Origin: a virus | Lineage: Duplodnaviria; Heunggongvirae; Uroviricota; Caudoviricetes | IMG/VR virus record: IMGVR_UViG_2541047728_000018 | Direction: 5' to 3' (one strand) | Length of the DNA stretch: 11,200 bases | In this document: positions 2,637-10,462 of the stretch, in pieces | Position numbering within the stretch: position 1 is the first letter of the stretch | Layout: the number at the start of each line of letters is the position of its first letter | The notes under the pieces: generated by a model | The model's input: the letters and a program-made list of their open reading frames with translations, nothing else | Databases searched by the model: none | Told to the model about the DNA's origin: nothing | Program-made: the position numbers and the translations under genes

Positions 2637-2834
2637 ATGGTTGCCGTAAATCATATACCACACCTTGTACACACACAAACGGCCTTTGTGTGGCGTTTTC
2701 TGGCACTGAGTGCCGGAGAATCTCAAATCATCCACGTAACCGCCTGGACGGAACGCGAAGCGCGTAGCCGTTGCCCGTCCGGTTGTGTTGCTGTATTTGC
2801 TGCCCGTATTCGCCAGGGGTCACATCATGCGTAA
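2637..2834 (+). CDS. Small protein (65 aa) with FVWRF...TEREAR...ARIRQG-SHA domain; possibly Icd-like (tentative)
   Basis: ATG at 2637 with AGGAG SD 5 nt upstream. The C-terminus is paralogous to the C-terminus of the next ORF. Family assignment is from memory of typical P4-like island annotations, not verified. Confidence 0.5.
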   Translation: MVAVNHIPHLVHTQTAFVWRFLALSAGESQIIHVTAWTEREARSRCPSGCVAVFAARIRQGSHHA

Positions 2835-3291
2835 AAACCGCTTGCAAAAAATTATCACGGGGCTGTATGCTTCCCCCGTCGCCCACATGGCGACCGGGTT
2901 TAGCAGCCTGAATACATCTGGCGGACAGCCGCCCACATCCGATAAGCGGTTTTTTTGTGTCCGTAAACCTACCCATACCCGCATTATGGCGGGGCGTAAC
3001 GGGGGAGCCTTTGTGCTCGCTGGTTTCCAGATGACCAGTCTGCTAACCCTGTTACGTCTCGCCACCATGTTTAGCAGCGTAGTAGCGAGACTCCTTAAAA
3101 TTCATCTGGGAGCCTTTCACATGGCTGTATTCGCACGCCCTTATTTTGTCTGGCGCTTTATGCAGTGCCTGACAGACAGTATTGCAATATTCACCGTTAC
3201 CGCTGCCACTGAGCGCGAAGCACGTGCACAGCTGCCGCACGCACATCTTATTTTTGTCGCCCGTATTCGCCAGGGGGGGAGTCATGCATAA
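2827..3291 (+). CDS. Protein (154 aa) whose C-terminal ~56 aa are paralogous to the preceding small ORF; alternative internal start at 3121
   Basis: Start overlaps the upstream stop in ATGCGTAA (2827-2834). C-terminus FVWRFMQCLTDSIAIFTVTAATEREARAQLPHAHLIFVARIRQGGSHA. ATG at 3121 has a GGGAG SD and would give a 56-aa paralog instead. Confidence 0.35.
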   Translation: MRKNRLQKIITGLYASPVAHMATGFSSLNTSGGQPPTSDKRFFCVRKPTHTRIMAGRNGGAFVLAGFQMTSLLTLLRLATMFSSVVARLLKIHLGAFHMAVFARPYFVWRFMQCLTDSIAIFTVTAATEREARAQLPHAHLIFVARIRQGGSHA

Positions 3292-3516: not shown

Positions 3517-3816
3517 ATGAAAAATAAAAATTCTGGCGTTACTGCCAGCGGCCCCGCTCGTCCTGAATTTATGAACGGCGATATTTACCGCGATAAATAT
3601 GGCGGCATGGTAACGATTAAAGGCGTGGCAGAACGGCGCATCACCTACCGTCGTGAAGGCTACGAATATGATTGCGTGATGCCTGTTTATCAGTTTGATC
3701 GTGATTTTTCTCTGGTGCAGGCAGCGCCCCGTAGTGTGCCCACCAGCAGGGAGAAAGCACGCGCCAATATTCAGGAAATAAAAAAGATGCTTAACGTATT
3801 CAGGGGTAAAAAATGA
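3517..3816 (+). CDS. Hypothetical protein (99 aa), translationally coupled to the primase
   Basis: SD GGAGAA upstream; its stop overlaps the primase start in ATGA (3813-3816). Confidence 0.55.
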   Translation: MKNKNSGVTASGPARPEFMNGDIYRDKYGGMVTIKGVAERRITYRREGYEYDCVMPVYQFDRDFSLVQAAPRSVPTSREKARANIQEIKKMLNVFRGKK

Positions 3817-5561
3817 AACTGGCACCGAACGTAAAAAAACAGCCACGCGGAATAAAACACAAAGACACAGAGGTAATTATTTTCGCGGGTAGTGATGCCT
3901 GGTCGCACGCGAAACAATGGCAGGAGCAGGATGGCCCCGCATCCGGCGATAATGTGCCGCCTGTGTGGCTTGGGCCAAATCAGCTTGCCGAACTTGATGC
4001 ACTGAAAATTGTTCCGGATGGAAAAAAACGCGTAAGGCTGTACCAGGCCGGAGAACTGGATTTGGTGGAGACCAAAAAGATTGGTCAGAAGCTGGCGGCG
4101 GCAGATATTCAGGACGCAAATTTTTACCCCGAAGGAATGCACGTCCAGAAGTGTGAAAACTGGCGGCGCTATCTGAATGCTGAGCGTGAAAATATTGCCG
4201 CAGGGCTTACCATGCCGGAGCAGAAAAATACGCAACTGGCACAAATGGCAGACAGTGAGCGCGCGCAGCTGCTTGCCGAGCGCTTTGATGGCGTTTGTGT
4301 GCATCCTGAAAGTGAAATCGTTCACGTATGGCGCGGCGGGGTATGGTGTCCGGTCAGCACAATGGAGCTGAGCCGCGAAATGGTGGCGATCTATTCAGAG
4401 CACAGGGCCACTTTCAGCAAGCGCGTAATCAATAACGCCGTGGAAGCGTTAAAAGTTATTGCCGAACCAATGGGCGAGCCGTCCGGCTATTTGCTGCCGT
4501 TCGCCAATGGTGCGCTTGACCTGAAAACGGGGGAATTTTCCCCGCACACGCCGGAGAACTGGATCACCACGCACAACGGCATTGAGTACACGCCACCAGC
4601 ACCCGGGGAGAACATCCGCGATAACGCGCCAAACTTTCATAAATGGCTTGAGCACGCAGCCGGAAAAGACCCGAGCAAGATGATGCGTATATGTGCCGCG
4701 CTGTACATGATTATGGCGAACCGGTACGACTGGCAGATGTTTATTGAGGCCACCGGAGACGGCGGGAGCGGTAAAAGTACATTCACACACATAGCCAGCC
4801 TTCTGGCAGGGAAACAGAACACGGTAAGCGCTGAAATGACATCGCTTGATGATGCTGGTGGACGTGCGCAGGTTGTCGGGAGTCGTCTTATCGTCCTGGC
4901 TGACCAGCCGAAATATACAGGCGAAGGAACGGGCATCAAGAAAATCACAGGCGGCGACCCCGTGGAAGTTAACCCGAAATATGAAAAGCGTTTCACGGCG
5001 GTAATCAGGGCGGTGGTGCTGGCGACCAACAACAACCCGATGATATTCACCGAACGGGCCGGAGGTGTGGCACGTCGTCGCGTGATTTTCCGTTTCGACA
5101 ATATCGTCAGTGAGGCCGAAAAAGACAGGGAGCTACCGGAAAAGATCGCGGCTGAAATCCCTGTCATTATCCGCCGATTGCTGGCGAACTTTACCGACCC
5201 TGAGAAGGCACGGGCTTTACTACTGGAACAGCGTGACGGTGATGAAGCTCTGGCAATAAAGCAACAGACGGATCCGGTTATTGAGTTTTGCCAGTTCCTG
5301 AATTTTCTGGAGGAAGCACGCGGCCTGATGATGGGCGGCGGTGGCGATTCAGTGAAGTACACGACCAGAAACAGCCTTTACCGCGTCTATCTGGCGTTTA
5401 TGGCGTACGCAGGCAGGAGCAAACCGCTAAACGTAAATGACTTTGGCAAGGCTATGAAGCCAGCCGCGAAAGTTTACGGACATGAATATATTACGCGGAA
5501 AGTTAAGGGAGTAACGCAGACTAACGCAATAACAACAGACGAGTGCGACGCGTTTTTATAA
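3813..5561 (+). CDS. Phage/plasmid primase-helicase, P4 alpha-like (D5_N / primase C-terminal type)
   Basis: 582-aa ORF with Walker A motif GDGGSGKST; overall layout of P4-family primase/helicase C-terminal region; placed between alpA and an iteron origin as in P4-like and PICI replicons. Confidence 0.85.
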   Translation: MKLAPNVKKQPRGIKHKDTEVIIFAGSDAWSHAKQWQEQDGPASGDNVPPVWLGPNQLAELDALKIVPDGKKRVRLYQAGELDLVETKKIGQKLAAADIQDANFYPEGMHVQKCENWRRYLNAERENIAAGLTMPEQKNTQLAQMADSERAQLLAERFDGVCVHPESEIVHVWRGGVWCPVSTMELSREMVAIYSEHRATFSKRVINNAVEALKVIAEPMGEPSGYLLPFANGALDLKTGEFSPHTPENWITTHNGIEYTPPAPGENIRDNAPNFHKWLEHAAGKDPSKMMRICAALYMIMANRYDWQMFIEATGDGGSGKSTFTHIASLLAGKQNTVSAEMTSLDDAGGRAQVVGSRLIVLADQPKYTGEGTGIKKITGGDPVEVNPKYEKRFTAVIRAVVLATNNNPMIFTERAGGVARRRVIFRFDNIVSEAEKDRELPEKIAAEIPVIIRRLLANFTDPEKARALLLEQRDGDEALAIKQQTDPVIEFCQFLNFLEEARGLMMGGGGDSVKYTTRNSLYRVYLAFMAYAGRSKPLNVNDFGKAMKPAAKVYGHEYITRKVKGVTQTNAITTDECDAFL

Positions 5562-5849: not shown

Positions 5850-6128
5850 ATGCACACTTCAGGGAAATTTAATAAATCACTCAAAAAACGCAGAGACAGA
5901 ACAGAACCGAAATATCGCGCGTTAGATATGACAGAGCACGCTTTAAAGGTGGCAATCAGAACGATAGACCGCCACGCGGGGGAAGGATACGCGAAAGCAC
6001 ATCCCGAACTGATAAGCGCATTCATGACCACGACGGCGGCAAACTTTGCCACGCTGACAGAACGGGAGATTGCCGAAGCGGAACAGGTAACAACCATCAA
6101 CGTTAAAACCGGAGAGGTGGAATCATGA
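5850..6128 (+). CDS. Hypothetical protein (92 aa)
   Basis: SD GAGGGGG upstream; its stop overlaps the ssb start (ATGA at 6125-6128). Confidence 0.5.
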   Translation: MHTSGKFNKSLKKRRDRTEPKYRALDMTEHALKVAIRTIDRHAGEGYAKAHPELISAFMTTTAANFATLTEREIAEAEQVTTINVKTGEVES

Positions 6129-6547
6129 CAGCACAGATAGCAGCTTACGGGCGGCTGGTGGACGACCCGCAGGTAAAACAGACCAGCAAGGGCACACCGA
6201 TGACGCTGGCGCGTATGGCGGTCCCCCTTCCGTGCAGCCAGGCAGATGACGGAACGGCGACGATGTGGTTATCCGTCCTGGCATTTGGCAGACAGGCCGA
6301 AGCACTGGAAAGGCACCGCAAGGGTGAACTCCTGAGCGTGGCGGGTAACATGCAGATCAGCCAGTGGACTGGGCAGAACGGAGAAACGCGGCAGGGCTGG
6401 CAGGTTATCGCAGACAGTGTAATCAGTGCGCGAACGGCGCGACTGGGCGGCAAAAAAGGTCAACAGGGCCAGGCTACTGACGCGCTGAACAGGGCAAAAC
6501 AACAGGCGGGGAATGATGATCCGTACGGGGATAACATACCGTTTTAA
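6125..6547 (+). CDS. ssb: Single-stranded DNA-binding protein (SSB) homolog
   Basis: 140 aa. OB-fold core alignable from memory to E. coli SSB (IAAYGRLVDDPQV..., WLSVLAFGRQAEALERHRKGELLSVAGNMQISQWT...), glycine/glutamine-rich linker, and C-terminal acidic tip ending DDPYGDNIPF (compare the DDDIPF tail of SSB). Confidence 0.75.
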   Translation: MTAQIAAYGRLVDDPQVKQTSKGTPMTLARMAVPLPCSQADDGTATMWLSVLAFGRQAEALERHRKGELLSVAGNMQISQWTGQNGETRQGWQVIADSVISARTARLGGKKGQQGQATDALNRAKQQAGNDDPYGDNIPF

Positions 6548-6804: not shown

Positions 6805-6877
6805 TATGAGGCTTTTTGGTGCACTGACACACATGATCGGGATCATCATTTCATAATTTGCAACACAACTCAATATC

Positions 6878-6927
6878 ATTGCACAAAATGCAATCATGAT
6901 TATAATCAGAGCTGGATGAACATCCAG
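6878..6927 (+). promoter_or_regulatory. Candidate regulated promoter of the capsid operon
   Basis: Perfect -10 TATAAT at 6901-6906 with a weak -35 (TTGCAC at 6879-6884); inverted repeat ATTGCA-N5-TGCAAT at 6878-6894 over the -35 region; perfect palindrome CTGGATG-AA-CATCCAG at 6912-6927 just downstream of the -10. Confidence 0.35.
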
Positions 6928-6962
6928 TTATGATTTTTTAAGTCGAAGAGGAATTTCTTACT

Positions 6963-7169
6963 ATGGCTGAAGAGAAAAAAGGCGGTGTTTCGGTGTACAT
7001 AAGCCCCGAAATCGTGGAGGTGCTCAAGCAGCGCCACAAAAAAAACTATGAGGCTGGCGTGGCGGCTGGACTGGATCCGCTGATGACGCCGGAGCCGTCG
7101 ATAGGTTCACTTGTACGCTCTTATTTACTTGCGGCGCTTGGGATGCATAAAAATTATGGGGGTGAATAA
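6963..7169 (+). CDS. Hypothetical protein (68 aa), first gene of the head module
   Basis: ORF whose stop (TAA 7167-7169) overlaps the capsid gene ATG (7169-7171); purine-rich SD upstream. Confidence 0.45.
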   Translation: MAEEKKGGVSVYISPEIVEVLKQRHKKNYEAGVAAGLDPLMTPEPSIGSLVRSYLLAALGMHKNYGGE

Positions 7170-8224
7170 TGGCAGGCAAAGCAACGGCACTTAACACTAA
7201 CCAGCTTTTCATGTACCTGAATCGCGGGGATATTGCGGATTTTAAATTCAGCCCTCTGTTTACCACGCTGTTTTTCCCGAACGTGGCGACATTCAGCACG
7301 CAAAACATCATGCTGGATACCCTGGACATTGAAGAAGTCACCATGTCGGCGTTTTGTTCGCCTATGGTGGGTAGCCAGGTTCAGCGCGATAAAGGGTACG
7401 AAACCAGCACAATCAAACCTGGCTACATGAAGCCAAAGCACGAAATCGATCCAACGAAAACCATCATGCGCATGGCTGGAGAAGATCCGGCACAGCTTAA
7501 CGACCCTACCTATCGCCGTATGCGCCTGATTACTGGCAACATGCGCCGCCAGATAAACGCCATTAAGGCACGCGTGGAATGGCTGGCGGTGAATGCGGTA
7601 ACGACCGGAAAAAACATCATTGAGGGCGAAGGCATAGAACGCTATGAAATCGACTGGAAAATACCGGAAAACTGCATCATAGAGCAGGCCAAGGGTAAAA
7701 AATGGTCCGAGCAGGATAAAGACATGCACGACCCAATCTATGACATCGAGCTTTATGCTGATCAGGCTGGTTGCCCCGCAAACGTCATGATTATGGGCGC
7801 TGAGGTATGGCGAACGTTACGCAGCTTTAAAAAATTCCGTGAGCTGTACGATCTTTCCCGTGGTTCAGAGTCCGCCGCAGAGCTGGCCTGTAAAAACCTG
7901 GGCGAAGTGGTGAGCTTTAAAGGCTATCTGGGCGATATTGCCCTTATCGTCTATTCCGGCAAATACACTGACAGCGACGGCACAGAAAAATATTTCCTTG
8001 AGCCTGATTTGCTGGTTCTGGGCAGCACCAACAATAAAGGGCTGGTGGCCTATGGTGCGATTATGGATCAGGACGCAGTAAGAACGGGCGCAACGCAAAA
8101 CATGTTTTACCCGAAAAACTGGATTGAGGACGGCGATCCGGCGATTGAGTACGTGCAGACGCACAGCGCACCGCAGCCGGTTCCGGCAGATATTCGCAAA
8201 TTTGTTACCGTCAAAATTGGTTAA
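7169..8224 (+). CDS. Major capsid protein, lambda gpE family
   Basis: 351 aa. Collinear similarity to lambda gpE recalled from memory: KFSPLFTTLFFPN vs KFDPLFLRLFFRE; PGYMKPKHEIDP vs PGYVKPKHEVNP; DPTYRRMRLITGNMR vs DPAYRRRRIIMQNMR; YPKNWIEDGDPAIEYVQTHSAP vs YPKNWVTTGDPAREFTMIQSAP. Good SD GGGGGTGA. Confidence 0.85.
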   Translation: MAGKATALNTNQLFMYLNRGDIADFKFSPLFTTLFFPNVATFSTQNIMLDTLDIEEVTMSAFCSPMVGSQVQRDKGYETSTIKPGYMKPKHEIDPTKTIMRMAGEDPAQLNDPTYRRMRLITGNMRRQINAIKARVEWLAVNAVTTGKNIIEGEGIERYEIDWKIPENCIIEQAKGKKWSEQDKDMHDPIYDIELYADQAGCPANVMIMGAEVWRTLRSFKKFRELYDLSRGSESAAELACKNLGEVVSFKGYLGDIALIVYSGKYTDSDGTEKYFLEPDLLVLGSTNNKGLVAYGAIMDQDAVRTGATQNMFYPKNWIEDGDPAIEYVQTHSAPQPVPADIRKFVTVKIG

Positions 8225-8235
8225 CGGGGGATTCT

Positions 8236-8571
8236 ATGGACACTCCATACATTGAGTTATTTGCAGGCAGTCAGCAGGTCGCCACGACGCTGGTACATTT
8301 TGCCGCTGATGCTGGCGTTATTCAGGAATTTACCCCGCTGATGCTGGCGGACAATGGCGAGTTTAAGCCGTGGGATGGTAAGGAATCTGGCAAGGCTGTT
8401 TATCTGACCTCGTACCCTGTGGACACGTCAAAGCAGAAATCAGCACAGTGTTACAAGACGGGGATATTCAATATTGCCGCCGTTAACTGGCCTGAGAGCG
8501 TCGACACCGATGCGAAAAAATGCGCCGCCTTTGCGGGTTCTGGCGTATCCGTTCAGCCGCTGGCCCGATAA
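8236..8571 (+). CDS. Head decoration protein, lambda gpD-like
   Basis: 111 aa. TPLMLADNGEFKPWDG vs gpD TPLMLDTSSRKLVAWDG; YKTGIFNIAAVNWPESVDTDAKKCAAFAGSGVSVQ vs [43 protein letters not shown]. Confidence 0.75.
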   Translation: MDTPYIELFAGSQQVATTLVHFAADAGVIQEFTPLMLADNGEFKPWDGKESGKAVYLTSYPVDTSKQKSAQCYKTGIFNIAAVNWPESVDTDAKKCAAFAGSGVSVQPLAR

Positions 8572-8583
8572 GCAGGGGGAACG

Positions 8584-8997
8584 ATGGCAACGAATGAAAG
8601 CATCATGACGCTACCGCTGGCGAGTAAATTTAAAGCCGAAGCGCGGGCAATGGCTGACAGAGGTTTATCAACCTATGAGGCCGTATATCAACTAAACAAA
8701 CTGGAAGAGCAGGACAAGCCGCGCGCTGATGCGATTATGGCGCTTGATGAATCTGGCGACTATCAGCCGCTGTTACGTGCAATGGCAAACGTGCCTTGTA
8801 TCGATGTTGGTACGGCTAAAAGCATCCTTAGCATGACCATAGAGCAGGAACGTCCGAAGGTTGCGCCGGAACTTACTGCAGCCTTTGAAAACTTTATGGA
8901 CATGCACAGCCCGCAAGCCGTATCAGCTGGCATGGCATACGATGGCAGAAACCAGGGCGATGACGGCGACATCGATCGCATACTGAAAACCATCTGA
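8584..8997 (+). CDS. Hypothetical protein (137 aa) in the head module
   Basis: Good SD AGGGGGA, tight spacing after the decoration gene, followed by a terminator. No recognisable family. Confidence 0.5.
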   Translation: MATNESIMTLPLASKFKAEARAMADRGLSTYEAVYQLNKLEEQDKPRADAIMALDESGDYQPLLRAMANVPCIDVGTAKSILSMTIEQERPKVAPELTAAFENFMDMHSPQAVSAGMAYDGRNQGDDGDIDRILKTI

Positions 8998-9003
8998 GAC
9001 AAG

Positions 9004-9027
9004 GCCGGAGAAATCCGGCTTTTTTTT
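9004..9027 (+). terminator. Rho-independent terminator closing the head module
   Basis: Stem GCCGGA / TCCGGC with GAAA loop, followed by 8 T. Confidence 0.65.
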
Positions 9028-9029
9028 AT

Positions 9030-9138
9030 GGGTCCTTTCCGGCATATGGACCCGTTACGGGGCGGCGACCTCGCGGTTTTTCGCTATTTATGAGCTTTTT
9101 CAGGGGGGTGGTGGTGGTTTTGTTGTTTGCTCTATCTT
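9030..9138 (+). other. cos site (cosQ-like, lambda-identical cosN, non-lambda cosB) upstream of the Nu1-like gene
   Basis: GGGTCCTTTCCGG (9030-9042) matches the lambda right-end cosQ-proximal sequence; CGTTACGGGGCGGCGACCTCGCGG carries the lambda 12-nt cohesive end GGGCGGCGACCT (9060-9071). Downstream sequence diverges from lambda cosB (no CGTTTCC-type R sites). Confidence 0.7.
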
Positions 9139-9165
9139 TATGAATGAAAAGGGAAAGATGCAAAC

Positions 9166-9203
9166 AATACACCAACCTGAAGCAGTAATTAAGTTGGTGT
9201 ATT
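9166..9203. promoter_or_regulatory. Perfect 11-bp inverted repeat AATACACCAAC / GTTGGTGTATT just upstream of the Nu1-like start codon
   Basis: Arms at 9166-9176 and 9193-9203 with 16-nt spacer; the right arm ends 2 nt before the ATG at 9205. Could be a cosB-type binding site or an RBS-occluding stem-loop. Confidence 0.3.
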
Positions 9204-9204
9204 A

Positions 9205-9747
9205 ATGAAATCGCACCTGATGAACAAAAAAAACATGGCGAAAAGCTGCCGTGTAAGTGCGACAGCGTTCGACAAGTGGGGAGTGACTCCCGTTGAACGT
9301 AAAGGCCGTGAGGCGTTTTACGATGTTGCCAGCGTGATAGACAATAGGGTTAACAATGCAATTAGCCAGCTTACAAACGACAAAGGCGATATTGATGATG
9401 ATGAACTCTTACGAGTCAGGATCAGATTACTGACAGCACAGGCGGAGGCGCAGGAACTTAAAAACGAGCGCGATCGCGGTGACGTGATTGATACTGAGTT
9501 TTGCCTGTACGCGCTTTCAAAGCTGGCGAGTCAGATTTCATCAATCATGGACAGCCTCCCGCTTACTATGCAAAGGAGCTTCCCACAGATTACCCCCGCC
9601 ATGCTGGATAGGCTTAAAAGGGAAGTGGTTAAAGCCTGTAATGCCAGTGCCAGAGTTGCCGACAACCTCCCACAGATACTGGCTGATTACTTGAAAGAAA
9701 CAACCGGAAACGTACCGGAAAAGTTGCTACAGAAGAAAGGCGAGTAA
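9205..9747 (+). CDS. Terminase small subunit, lambda Nu1-like (possible packaging-redirection TerS)
   Basis: 180 aa. LLTAQAEAQELKNERDRGDVIDTEFCLYALSKLASQISSIMDSLPLTMQRSFPQI vs lambda Nu1 LTRAQADAQELKNARDSAEVVETAFCTFVLSRIAGEIASILDGLPLSVQRRFPEL; N-terminal wHTH region (NKKNMAKSC...FYDVASVI) is related but diverged. Alternative starts at 9220 or 9235; SD is weak. Confidence 0.8.
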   Translation: MKSHLMNKKNMAKSCRVSATAFDKWGVTPVERKGREAFYDVASVIDNRVNNAISQLTNDKGDIDDDELLRVRIRLLTAQAEAQELKNERDRGDVIDTEFCLYALSKLASQISSIMDSLPLTMQRSFPQITPAMLDRLKREVVKACNASARVADNLPQILADYLKETTGNVPEKLLQKKGE

Positions 9748-9775
9748 CAGACGCGCAATTATTGAACAAAACTGA

Positions 9776-9969
9776 GAAACGACATGAAAGCGTCATAAAT
9801 CGCCATTTTAGATGATTACCGTGTCGTTTCTTTTTATTGTGTATCTATTTAAAAACAAATAGTTATGTTCGAGAAGTACCGACATGCTTTTTCCAGAAAA
9901 ATTTTCATAAACAGATAAAAACCGCGAGGTCGCCGCCCCGTAACGGGTCCATAATTCCAGGAAGGACCC
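9776..9969 (-). other. Complete lambda-type cos (cosQ, cosN, cosB with R-site-like repeats) in inverted orientation
   Basis: 9917-9952 is the exact reverse complement of 9046-9081. Read on the minus strand, the flank resembles lambda cosB: TTTATGAAAATTTTTCTGG; AAAAGAAACGACACGG; CATGTCGTTTCTCAGTTTTGTTC (compare lambda TTTATGAAAATTTTCCGG; AAAGGAAACGACAGGTG; CTGTCGTTTCCTTTCTCTGTTTTTGTCC). cosQ-like GGGTCCTTCCTGG is the complement of 9957-9969. Confidence 0.65.
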
Positions 9970-10003
9970 GACGACACCAGACAATCAGAACGATGGGTGC
10001 ACA

Positions 10004-10285
10004 ATGACAGAAGCCGAAATACTGGGATTAATCCGCCGTGCTGGTGGAATCAGCCAGCAGACTGACGAACAGGCCACGCAGCCGGACAGCGTGACAGCCG
10101 AAAATTATGCGCGTGTTGTTGCTGAGGTGATGCGCCGTGATGGTATCCAGCTTAATGATGTGGATATGCGCAACATACGGATCCGCGTTCTTGAAATGCT
10201 GGCCTACAATCGCCGCGTGGCACTGTATCGGGAAACGGAGAAAATTACATACCACTGGAAGAAGCCGGAGCGGTTGCGGCGGTAA
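10004..10285 (+). CDS. Hypothetical protein (93 aa)
   Basis: ORF with weak SD, immediately outside the inverted cos; Arg-rich C-terminus. No recognisable family. Confidence 0.4.
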   Translation: MTEAEILGLIRRAGGISQQTDEQATQPDSVTAENYARVVAEVMRRDGIQLNDVDMRNIRIRVLEMLAYNRRVALYRETEKITYHWKKPERLRR

Positions 10286-10462
10286 CTGGTTGATATTTTC
10301 GAAATTCGCCAGCGGCGAACATCGGGGAAACCAGCCTAACCCGTTGATATTTTCGGGAACCTCAAATTGAGGAGGTCGGAAACATAACCCGTCATATTCT
10401 GGATGCTGATAATTACCACGCAGCCCATTAAGGCCTAACCCGTTGATTCTTTCGGAAACAGC
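10281..10462. repeat. About four imperfect tandem repeats (period about 48-54 bp) with core TAACCCGTTGATATTTTCGG and recurring CGGAAAC
   Basis: GTTGATATTTTCG at 10289-10301 and 10343-10355; TAACCC at 10337, 10385, 10436; variant cores TAACCCGTCATATTCTGG and TAACCCGTTGATTCTTTCGG. Confidence 0.5.

Follow-up and report, generated by a model that had tools for sequence, protein, structure and literature searches.

The open reading frame at positions 8584-8997 (plus strand) encodes a 137-residue protein that is, judged by its homologies, a free-standing, satellite-borne new member of the known Nu3 family, with a putative scaffold activity. The window, that is the entire 11.2-kb stretch of DNA under analysis (11,200 nucleotides), is a Gram-negative phage-inducible chromosomal island (PICI) of the EcCICFT073/EcCIIHE3034 type, a family of islands reported by Fillol-Salom et al. 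2018 (PMC6092414). The protein shows 100% identity to c1501 (WP_000224596.1) of EcCICFT073, which serves only as a marker or replacement site in the searchable papers and whose scaffold homology is undescribed in them. What is new, at the level of homology, is the recognition of this catalogued but uncharacterised protein as a member of the Nu3 family. The favored interpretation, to which a probability of roughly 0.55 is assigned, is that it would act as the scaffold of an island-encoded shell kit, comprised of a gpE-like major capsid protein (E), a gpD-like head decoration protein (D), and the Nu3-like protein itself.

The gene consists of 137 codons, with an ATG at 8584 and a TGA at 8995-8997, and its product has a molecular mass of 15.0 kDa and a pI of 4.6 (4.58). 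The start codon lies 13 nt past the gpD-like stop (8571) and is served by a ribosome-binding site of its own, the Shine-Dalgarno sequence AGGGGGA at 8574-8580 (plus strand), located 3-4 nt 5' of the ATG. This element is kept in related copies, reading AGGGGG/AGGGGA, or GGTGGAG in locus L005, across a sample of 82 (80 IMG/VR loci, CFT073, and a divergent metagenomic locus). An intrinsic terminator follows at 9001-9030 (plus strand), with a 9-bp GC-rich stem, a GAAA loop, and a T8 run; its hairpin (9001-9022, GGCCGGA-GAAA-TCCGGC, then eight T) is kept in all loci whose sequence continues beyond the stop codon, and both ribosome-binding site and hairpin are present even in the most divergent copy, L005. 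Among the 81 ungapped full-length copies of the gene in the IMG/VR loci, 80 are intact and the sole premature stop, at codon 124, is found in L020, where the capsid gene is truncated too. Mean dN divided by mean dS gives 0.28 for this gene, whereas the gpE-like gene has a value of 0.135, the gpD-like gene one of 0.11, and the first gene of the cassette (orf68) one of 0.23, and because of this low value the open reading frame is regarded as a real gene under purifying selection.

The cassette to which the gene belongs is opened by orf68 (6963-7169, plus strand), which encodes 68 residues and matches phrog_3255 (function unknown), and the last base of which overlaps the start of the gene for the gpE-like major capsid protein (351 aa; 7169-8224, plus strand; Pfam Phage_cap_E, E = 1.9e-50). 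The gpD-like head decoration protein (111 aa; 8236-8571, plus strand; Pfam HDPD, E = 2.5e-17) comes next, directly before the 137-residue protein. The order and spacing of these four genes are identical in 80 of 80 IMG/VR loci, and genes of the HDPD and Phage_cap_E families neighbor the slot of the 137-residue protein not only in the window but also in over 85 related loci, whereas past the terminator the gene content varies by locus. The original prediction, which had placed an open reading frame with a good ribosome-binding site and its own terminator at the end of a head module, is therefore confirmed with regard to the coordinates, to both expression signals, which are conserved in the related loci examined, and to the position, an invariant slot directly after orf68 and the gpE-like and gpD-like genes.

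Upstream of orf68, a sigma-70-like promoter match (TTCATA-18-TATCAT, a match to the consensus only) lies at 6850-6879 and a weak terminator-like hairpin is found at 6910-6929, just before the gene. Together with the terminator at 9001-9030, these elements suggest that orf68, E, D, and the scaffold gene may form a separate transcription unit. Two allele groups of orf68 occur, one of about 100% identity to the copy in the window and the other of about 69%, and these assort independently of the capsid gene. A relationship of orf68 to gpW, which has the same length of 68 residues, was considered and rejected, as no similarity to the phage 21 W homolog was found.

The 137-residue protein had originally been described as having no recognizable family, a statement that is explained by the empty Pfam and NCBIfam scans and that holds for these two collections only; it was overturned by the PHROGs scan, by tblastn against phages, and by hhalign against Nu3 proteins. 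In the PHROGs scan the protein is matched over its full length by phrog_1999 (E = 1e-64), annotated as of unknown function, and more weakly (E = 1e-8) by phrog_53, head maturation protease, at the extreme C-terminal positions 495-567 of 583. The "scaffolding protein" gp6 of phage 21 matches phrog_1999 with E = 1.8e-69 (residues 64-200 onto profile positions 1-135) and lambda Nu3 does so with E = 7e-27; phrog_1999, although labelled unknown, is in effect the Nu3 family. An hhalign comparison of the island family alignment with an alignment of phage 21 gp6, lambda Nu3, the protein of a second CFT073 prophage, and a Nu3-like fragment gave a probability of 96.2% (E = 2.5e-9) over residues 47-122. 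The remote homology search that had been proposed as a check on the prediction thus led to the Nu3 family, through phrog_1999 and hhalign alike.

Pairwise comparisons point in the same direction. By BLASTP, residues 49-131 align with residues 416-493 of a 501-residue gpC-like S49 peptidase of the CFT073 icd prophage (37% identity, E = 2e-10), and a tblastn search of 50,697 phage records returned matches only in gene C/Nu3 of phage 21-type lambdoids (E = 2e-5 to 4e-4), labelled "scaffolding protein", "head-tail preconnector protein Nu3" (PV340551), or "capsid protease/scaffolding protein". The Smith-Waterman score of residues 47-137 against phage 21 gp6 was 113, compared with 29.6 +/- 5.2 for shuffles (z about 16). 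Overall, the homology to Nu3 proteins spans about 75-90 residues at 35-37% identity. In lambdoid annotation, the C-terminal part of the protease gene C is separately translated as Nu3 (gp6 in phage 21); lambda Nu3, read from its internal Met, has 131 residues, 13.4 kDa, and a pI of 4.52, and phage 21 gp6 has 20.5 kDa and a pI of 4.57, so that the size and acidity of the 137-residue protein fall within the Nu3-type range of about 13-20 kDa.

The link to Nu3 surfaces only via phage 21-type proteins and profiles, and the direct BLASTP comparison with lambda gpC, taken alone, was not significant. In a phmmer search covering 1.84 billion representatives and in profile searches covering 5.8 billion proteins, the gpC-like proteins stayed below database-wide significance; apart from island homologs of E. 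coli, only a single Nu3-like fragment (P0041) and, as artefacts, the repeat proteins P0042 and P0043 were returned. A sequence search of the PDB yielded a chance match only (E = 0.37), and a PADLOC scan gave no defence-model match for the 137-residue open reading frame or its five neighbors. Family scans with Pfam, NCBIfam, and PHROG found phrog_1999 and phrog_53 only, with no match to SaPI CpmB/CpmA, P4 Sid, or SaPIbov5 Ccm. Of the roles proposed originally for a gene at this position, a scaffold, a capsid-size factor, or a head-completion factor, it is the scaffold that gains from these results, with residues 47-122 homologous to the C-terminal part of phage 21 gp6/lambda Nu3.

Three regions can be distinguished in the protein. 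The N-terminal region (residues 1-46, 8584-8721, plus strand) is island-specific and has no detectable similarity to Nu3, with neither BLASTP nor Smith-Waterman comparison with shuffles giving significant similarity to phage 21 gp6. It carries the motif IM(T/S)LPLASKF, which is largely conserved across the 137-, 134-, and 115-residue alleles found in this slot and exact in the 137-residue and some 134-residue forms. The Nu3-like region (residues 47-122, 8722-8949, plus strand), supported by hhalign, BLASTP, and tblastn, includes one module of the "Tri-box" type, RADAIMALDESGDYQPLLRAMANVPCIDVGTAKSIL, and the motif FENFMDMHSPQAV, whose counterpart in phage 21 gp6 is FEHFMANHSPAAV. The Tri-box module comprises roughly 37 residues and is found in three copies in phage 21 gp6, where it is annotated (M81255), and in one copy in the 137-residue protein. 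A second, degenerate Tri-box within residues 1-46, which would make the whole protein colinear with gp6 residues 64-200, was considered, but BLASTP and the Smith-Waterman shuffles lend it no support; the match of a Tri-box HMM to these residues is marginal, its score being reached by 36 of 1000 shuffles.

The third region (residues 123-137, 8950-8994, plus strand) consists of an acidic linker and a terminal helix, DIDRILKTI, the ending of which is nearly invariant across the three alleles (ILKTI, but ILKNI in the 115-residue allele). Its similarity to the phage 21 gp6 C terminus, DVKMLMAMP, is marginal (203 of 3000 shuffles reach the score), and the C-terminal tip is a candidate partner-binding site. 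The structure prediction that had likewise been proposed produced an all-helical AF2 model with a mean pLDDT of 73, in which the helices of residues 1-46 have values of 76-92, residues 100-137 are below 60, and helix 128-136 is of low confidence. With this model as the query, Foldseek returned nothing below E = 1 in the PDB and BFVD, extended helical and flexible proteins being poor queries, so that of the structural check the model was obtained and a structural relative was not. Three 93-residue in-frame deletion variants (P0025, P0028, and P0029) are without residues 25-68 (44 residues), and the short repeats ARAMA/LRAMA at the junction suggest that they arose by recombination.

A role as a head-tail connector (neck) protein is very improbable, although several cluster representatives among its homologs are named "phage head-tail connector protein" by NCBI. 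This name traces to the legacy term "head-tail preconnector gp5/gp6", referring to phage 21 genes 5 and 6, which are homologs of lambda C and Nu3 (M81255). Furthermore, no Pfam, NCBIfam, or PHROG match to the W, FII, portal, or adaptor families and no Foldseek match in the PDB or BFVD was found, and the RefSeq genome annotation gives the 137-residue allele as a hypothetical protein throughout. The misleading database name is corrected by the present assignment.

The protein shares with phage 21 gp6 and lambda Nu3 the homologous residues 47-122, possibly the C terminus, and PHROG 1999, as well as size, acidity, an alanine-rich helical/flexible character, and a gene position adjoining D and E homologs. 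It differs from them in several respects. In phage 21 and lambda, Nu3 is phage-borne and nested in-frame in the 3' part of protease gene C, whereas the island gene is satellite-borne and free-standing, with no protease in the window. The order is C/Nu3-D-E in lambda and phage 21 and is inverted in the island, where it is E-D-Nu3-like. Phage 21 gp6 contains three Tri-box modules, whereas the island protein has one clear module behind an unrelated 46-residue N terminus. Finally, Nu3 is required for normal lambda head assembly, whereas c1501 is dispensable in published assays.

The interpretation of the protein as a scaffold for the island's own capsid protein is favored on the strength of the homology, the physical character, the gene context, and the purifying selection described above, and for three further reasons. 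First, the island set corresponds to the shell-forming proteins of lambda, in which capsid protein, scaffold, and decoration protein are the minimal set sufficient for shell assembly in E. coli (PMC9295703). Second, Nu3 has E, B (portal), C (protease), and further Nu3 as its known interaction partners (PMC3224144). Third, island E, D, and the Nu3-like protein are about equally distant from the helper-type proteins of the CFT073 icd prophage, with identities of 44% to its major capsid protein, 43% to its decoration protein, and 37% to the C terminus of its gpC-like protein, as expected for a co-inherited trio.

In such a scheme, the Nu3-like region (residues 47-137) has lost its tie to any protease, been fused to the island-specific 46-residue N terminus, and come to stand behind the genes of the gpE-like and gpD-like proteins, the whole forming a single short unit, orf68-E-D-Nu3-like-terminator. 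The small, acidic, helical, and partly flexible protein would bind the inner face of the island gpE-like capsid protein, its putative partner, and catalyze the assembly of that protein into closed shells; like Nu3, it may also make contact with the portal and the protease, here those of the helper. Subsequently it would exit or undergo degradation, and the shell, once expanded, would be decorated with the gpD-like protein. A lambdoid helper would supply the portal, the protease, the large terminase, the proteins of head completion, and the tail.

The slot at 8584-8997 holds at least three alleles, of 137, 134, and 115 residues, with 39-47% identity overall, the divergent ones being located at L005:1873-2277, L089:9001-9405, and L091:9001-9348. 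Common to the three are the N-terminal IM.L.LA.KF, the central module, and the C-terminal ILK(T/N)I. Between L005 and L091 the capsid proteins are 100% identical and the decoration proteins 99% identical, but the slot products only 44%. Co-variation of the slot gene with the gpE-like gene was rejected on this ground, and because such divergent products stand beside an identical capsid protein, the partner driving the allele diversity should probably be sought elsewhere than in the capsid protein of the island, most obviously among the components of the helper. This finding counts against the favored scaffold reading, being unexpected if E were the sole partner.

With a helper component as the candidate partner, the adaptor proposed in the original prediction, a factor adapting the island-encoded capsid to helper components, stays as a rival, albeit a rather unlikely one. 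As a helper-directed adaptor or competitor scaffold, comparable in principle to SaPI1 CpmB, the protein would mimic the C terminus of helper Nu3/gpC with its Nu3-like region, dock on the helper capsid, portal, or protease, and bias helper heads or insert island E/D instead of building a shell of the island's own, its alleles matching different helpers. The three divergent alleles beside identical or near-identical E and D would fit a partner outside the island, as would a dN/dS of the slot gene above those of E and D. Phage 21-type prophages, the CFT073 icd prophage among them, have a scaffold similar to the Nu3-like region, and the most variable segment of the alleles carries a phage 21-like FENFMDMHSP motif. 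On the other hand, tblastn of the 134- and 115-residue alleles against phages gave no scaffold match. Nor do the helper phages that have been used bear the adaptor out: neither small capsids nor PICI-monomer DNA turned up (PMC6092414), transfer by phi80 or the native helper is undiminished when the region is lost, and among the genes downstream of ori, when cloned singly, only c1503 (RppA) inhibited lambda and reduced its plaques (PMC6739421). The tests with lambda are weak evidence against an effect on a phage 21-type helper, because lambda Nu3 is distant from the 137-residue allele.

Published genetics on EcCICFT073 bear directly on the role of the protein, since the experiment by which the original prediction could be refuted, a deletion without effect on particle formation or transfer, has largely been carried out on the identical c1501. 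In that island, the supplement of PMC6092414 lists c1499 as capsid protein, c1500 as decoration protein, and c1501 as a product of 137 aa. The standard marked island, c1501::tetA, is transferred at about 8e3 transductants per ml (PMC6092414, where the exact tetA position is given only in Fig. S3). Deletion of c1499 (E) or c1500 (D) left transfer and lambda interference unchanged (PMC6092414), and islands in which c1498-c1501 was replaced by cas9 or melA were still packaged and transduced, with a phi80 helper without cos site (PMC10530653, PMC10460865). EcCICFT073 DNA was packaged phage-sized with lambda, and no PICI monomer band was seen with the native helper (PMC6092414; reviewed in PMC6893505); the CFT073 icd prophage has been described as a helper of EcCICFT073 (bioRxiv 10.1101/2022.07.18.500453). 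These data indicate that any Nu3-like activity is dispensable for transfer by the native CFT073 helper or phi80 and for interference with lambda, in tests made on an island of the Rpp type, whereas the window island is of the TerS type. An essential role in particle formation or transfer, as originally predicted, is therefore unsupported with the helpers tested, as c1501::tetA and the c1498-c1501 replacements still transfer.

The absence of a phenotype in the published deletions and replacements (PMC6092414, PMC10530653) would also be explained if the E-D-Nu3-like block were inherited cargo, captured from a lambdoid phage as a back-up copy or relic, in the way suggested for satellites inserting themselves among the late genes of a helper, and persisting by linkage or occasional complementation, with no dedicated role today. 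Degraded copies such as L020, with its premature stop and truncated E, and the 93-residue in-frame deletions would be in keeping with this. It is nevertheless unlikely, given the purifying selection on all four cassette genes (dN/dS 0.11-0.28), the 80 of 81 copies that are intact, and the constant order and spacing across 80 loci that differ in their integrases and replication modules. A search of 5426 complete E. coli genomes moreover found the 137-residue allele, at 90% nucleotide identity or above, in 593 of them, a single genome having as many as five copies, and the old divergence (37-44% identity) and inverted gene order argue against a recent capture. All named homologs of the protein are from E. 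coli, and two scans of one-genome-per-species contigs returned no relative of it.

The rest of the window is occupied by genes for a P4-type integrase (1-1242), an AlpA-like regulator (1739-1945), a DUF4222 protein (3517-3816), a D5_N/primase (3813-5561), and an SSB (6125-6547), with a 93-residue open reading frame at 10004-10285. Two overlapping, mechanically called open reading frames at 2535-2834 and 2785-3291 end in the near-alike peptides ...TEREARSRCPSGCVAVFAARIRQGSHHA and ...TEREARAQLPHAHLIFVARIRQGGSHA, suggesting a tandem duplication at a place where related islands have Icd-like cell-division-inhibitor genes. The best matches among complete E. coli genomes, at 98.4% over positions 6900-10300, include strain IHE3034, in which the island sits between cspD and clpS. 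The gene past the scaffold terminator encodes a Nu1-type small terminase (TerS) homolog of 180 residues (9205-9747, plus strand; Pfam Phage_Nu1, E = 2.3e-23; 33% identical to phage 21 gp1), which is present in about half of the related loci, and the same slot in CFT073 (L004:47659-48093) holds an Rpp-family gene (PDB 6HLK RppC, E = 5e-31). The Nu1-like gene is a separate, exchangeable packaging module.

The Nu1-like terS gene lies between the arms of a 56-nt inverted repeat (9045-9100 and 9898-9953) that are 89% complementary, and each arm holds a terminator-like hairpin, CGGGGCGGCGACCTCG, then a T run. Because the gene past the scaffold terminator differs between loci, the repeat may delimit a packaging cassette that can be exchanged or inverted. 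Direct repeats TAAC..GTTGATATTTTCG are found at 10283-10301 and 10337-10355, 54 nt apart and just past the 93-residue open reading frame. PICI cos/cosB elements are reported in a comparable position, and the repeats are possible terminase-binding repeats. The TerS-type IHE3034 island was reported to be poorly mobilised by its resident prophages (PMC6092414).

Within the island family, EcCICFT073 carries the 100% identical protein in the same place, after c1499 and c1500, but is an Rpp-carrying island, whereas the window is closest to the TerS-carrying EcCIIHE3034 type (best match 98.4%). The resemblance to SaPI1 CpmB is one of principle only, both being small helical satellite-encoded proteins with a region resembling a helper scaffold (Dearborn et al. 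2017, cited in PMC6092414). CpmB is a satellite-encoded alternative internal scaffold that steers the helper's capsid protein into small capsids, whereas EcCICFT073 packages phage-sized DNA and the window island has a capsid gene. The window also resembles the cf-PICIs, of which EcCIEDL933 encodes its own capsid proteins (bioRxiv 10.1101/2022.09.08.507074), in being a PICI with capsid protein genes of its own. The cf-PICIs carry the full set of capsid protein, protease, portal, connectors, HNH, TerS, and TerL, whereas the window island has homologs of E, D, Nu3, and TerS only, with no portal, no S49 or other protease, and no TerL among its open reading frames in the Pfam scan and the open reading frame list.

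The capsid genes of the c1499/c1500 type have been without a known phenotype since 2018, and recognition of a scaffold next to them recasts the question of why PICIs keep capsid genes as one of assembly between E and the Nu3-like protein, and of the helpers with which it would take place. For engineered PICIs, c1498-c1501 already serves as a cargo slot. A more far-reaching proposal, which is speculative and distinctly unlikely, is that orf68, E, D, and the Nu3-like gene form a functional, satellite-owned shell kit in which the scaffold would be an exchangeable specificity element. Its alleles would link the island capsid to the portal/protease initiators found in various lambdoid helpers or poison non-helper phages, and in these common E. 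coli PICIs chimeric heads, with an island shell and a helper portal and tail, would form only with natural helpers outside those tried. Otherwise, the result amounts to an improved annotation for a dispensable accessory gene. If the proposal were true, PICIs having a shell kit with an exchangeable scaffold would represent an intermediate between classical PICIs and cf-PICIs.
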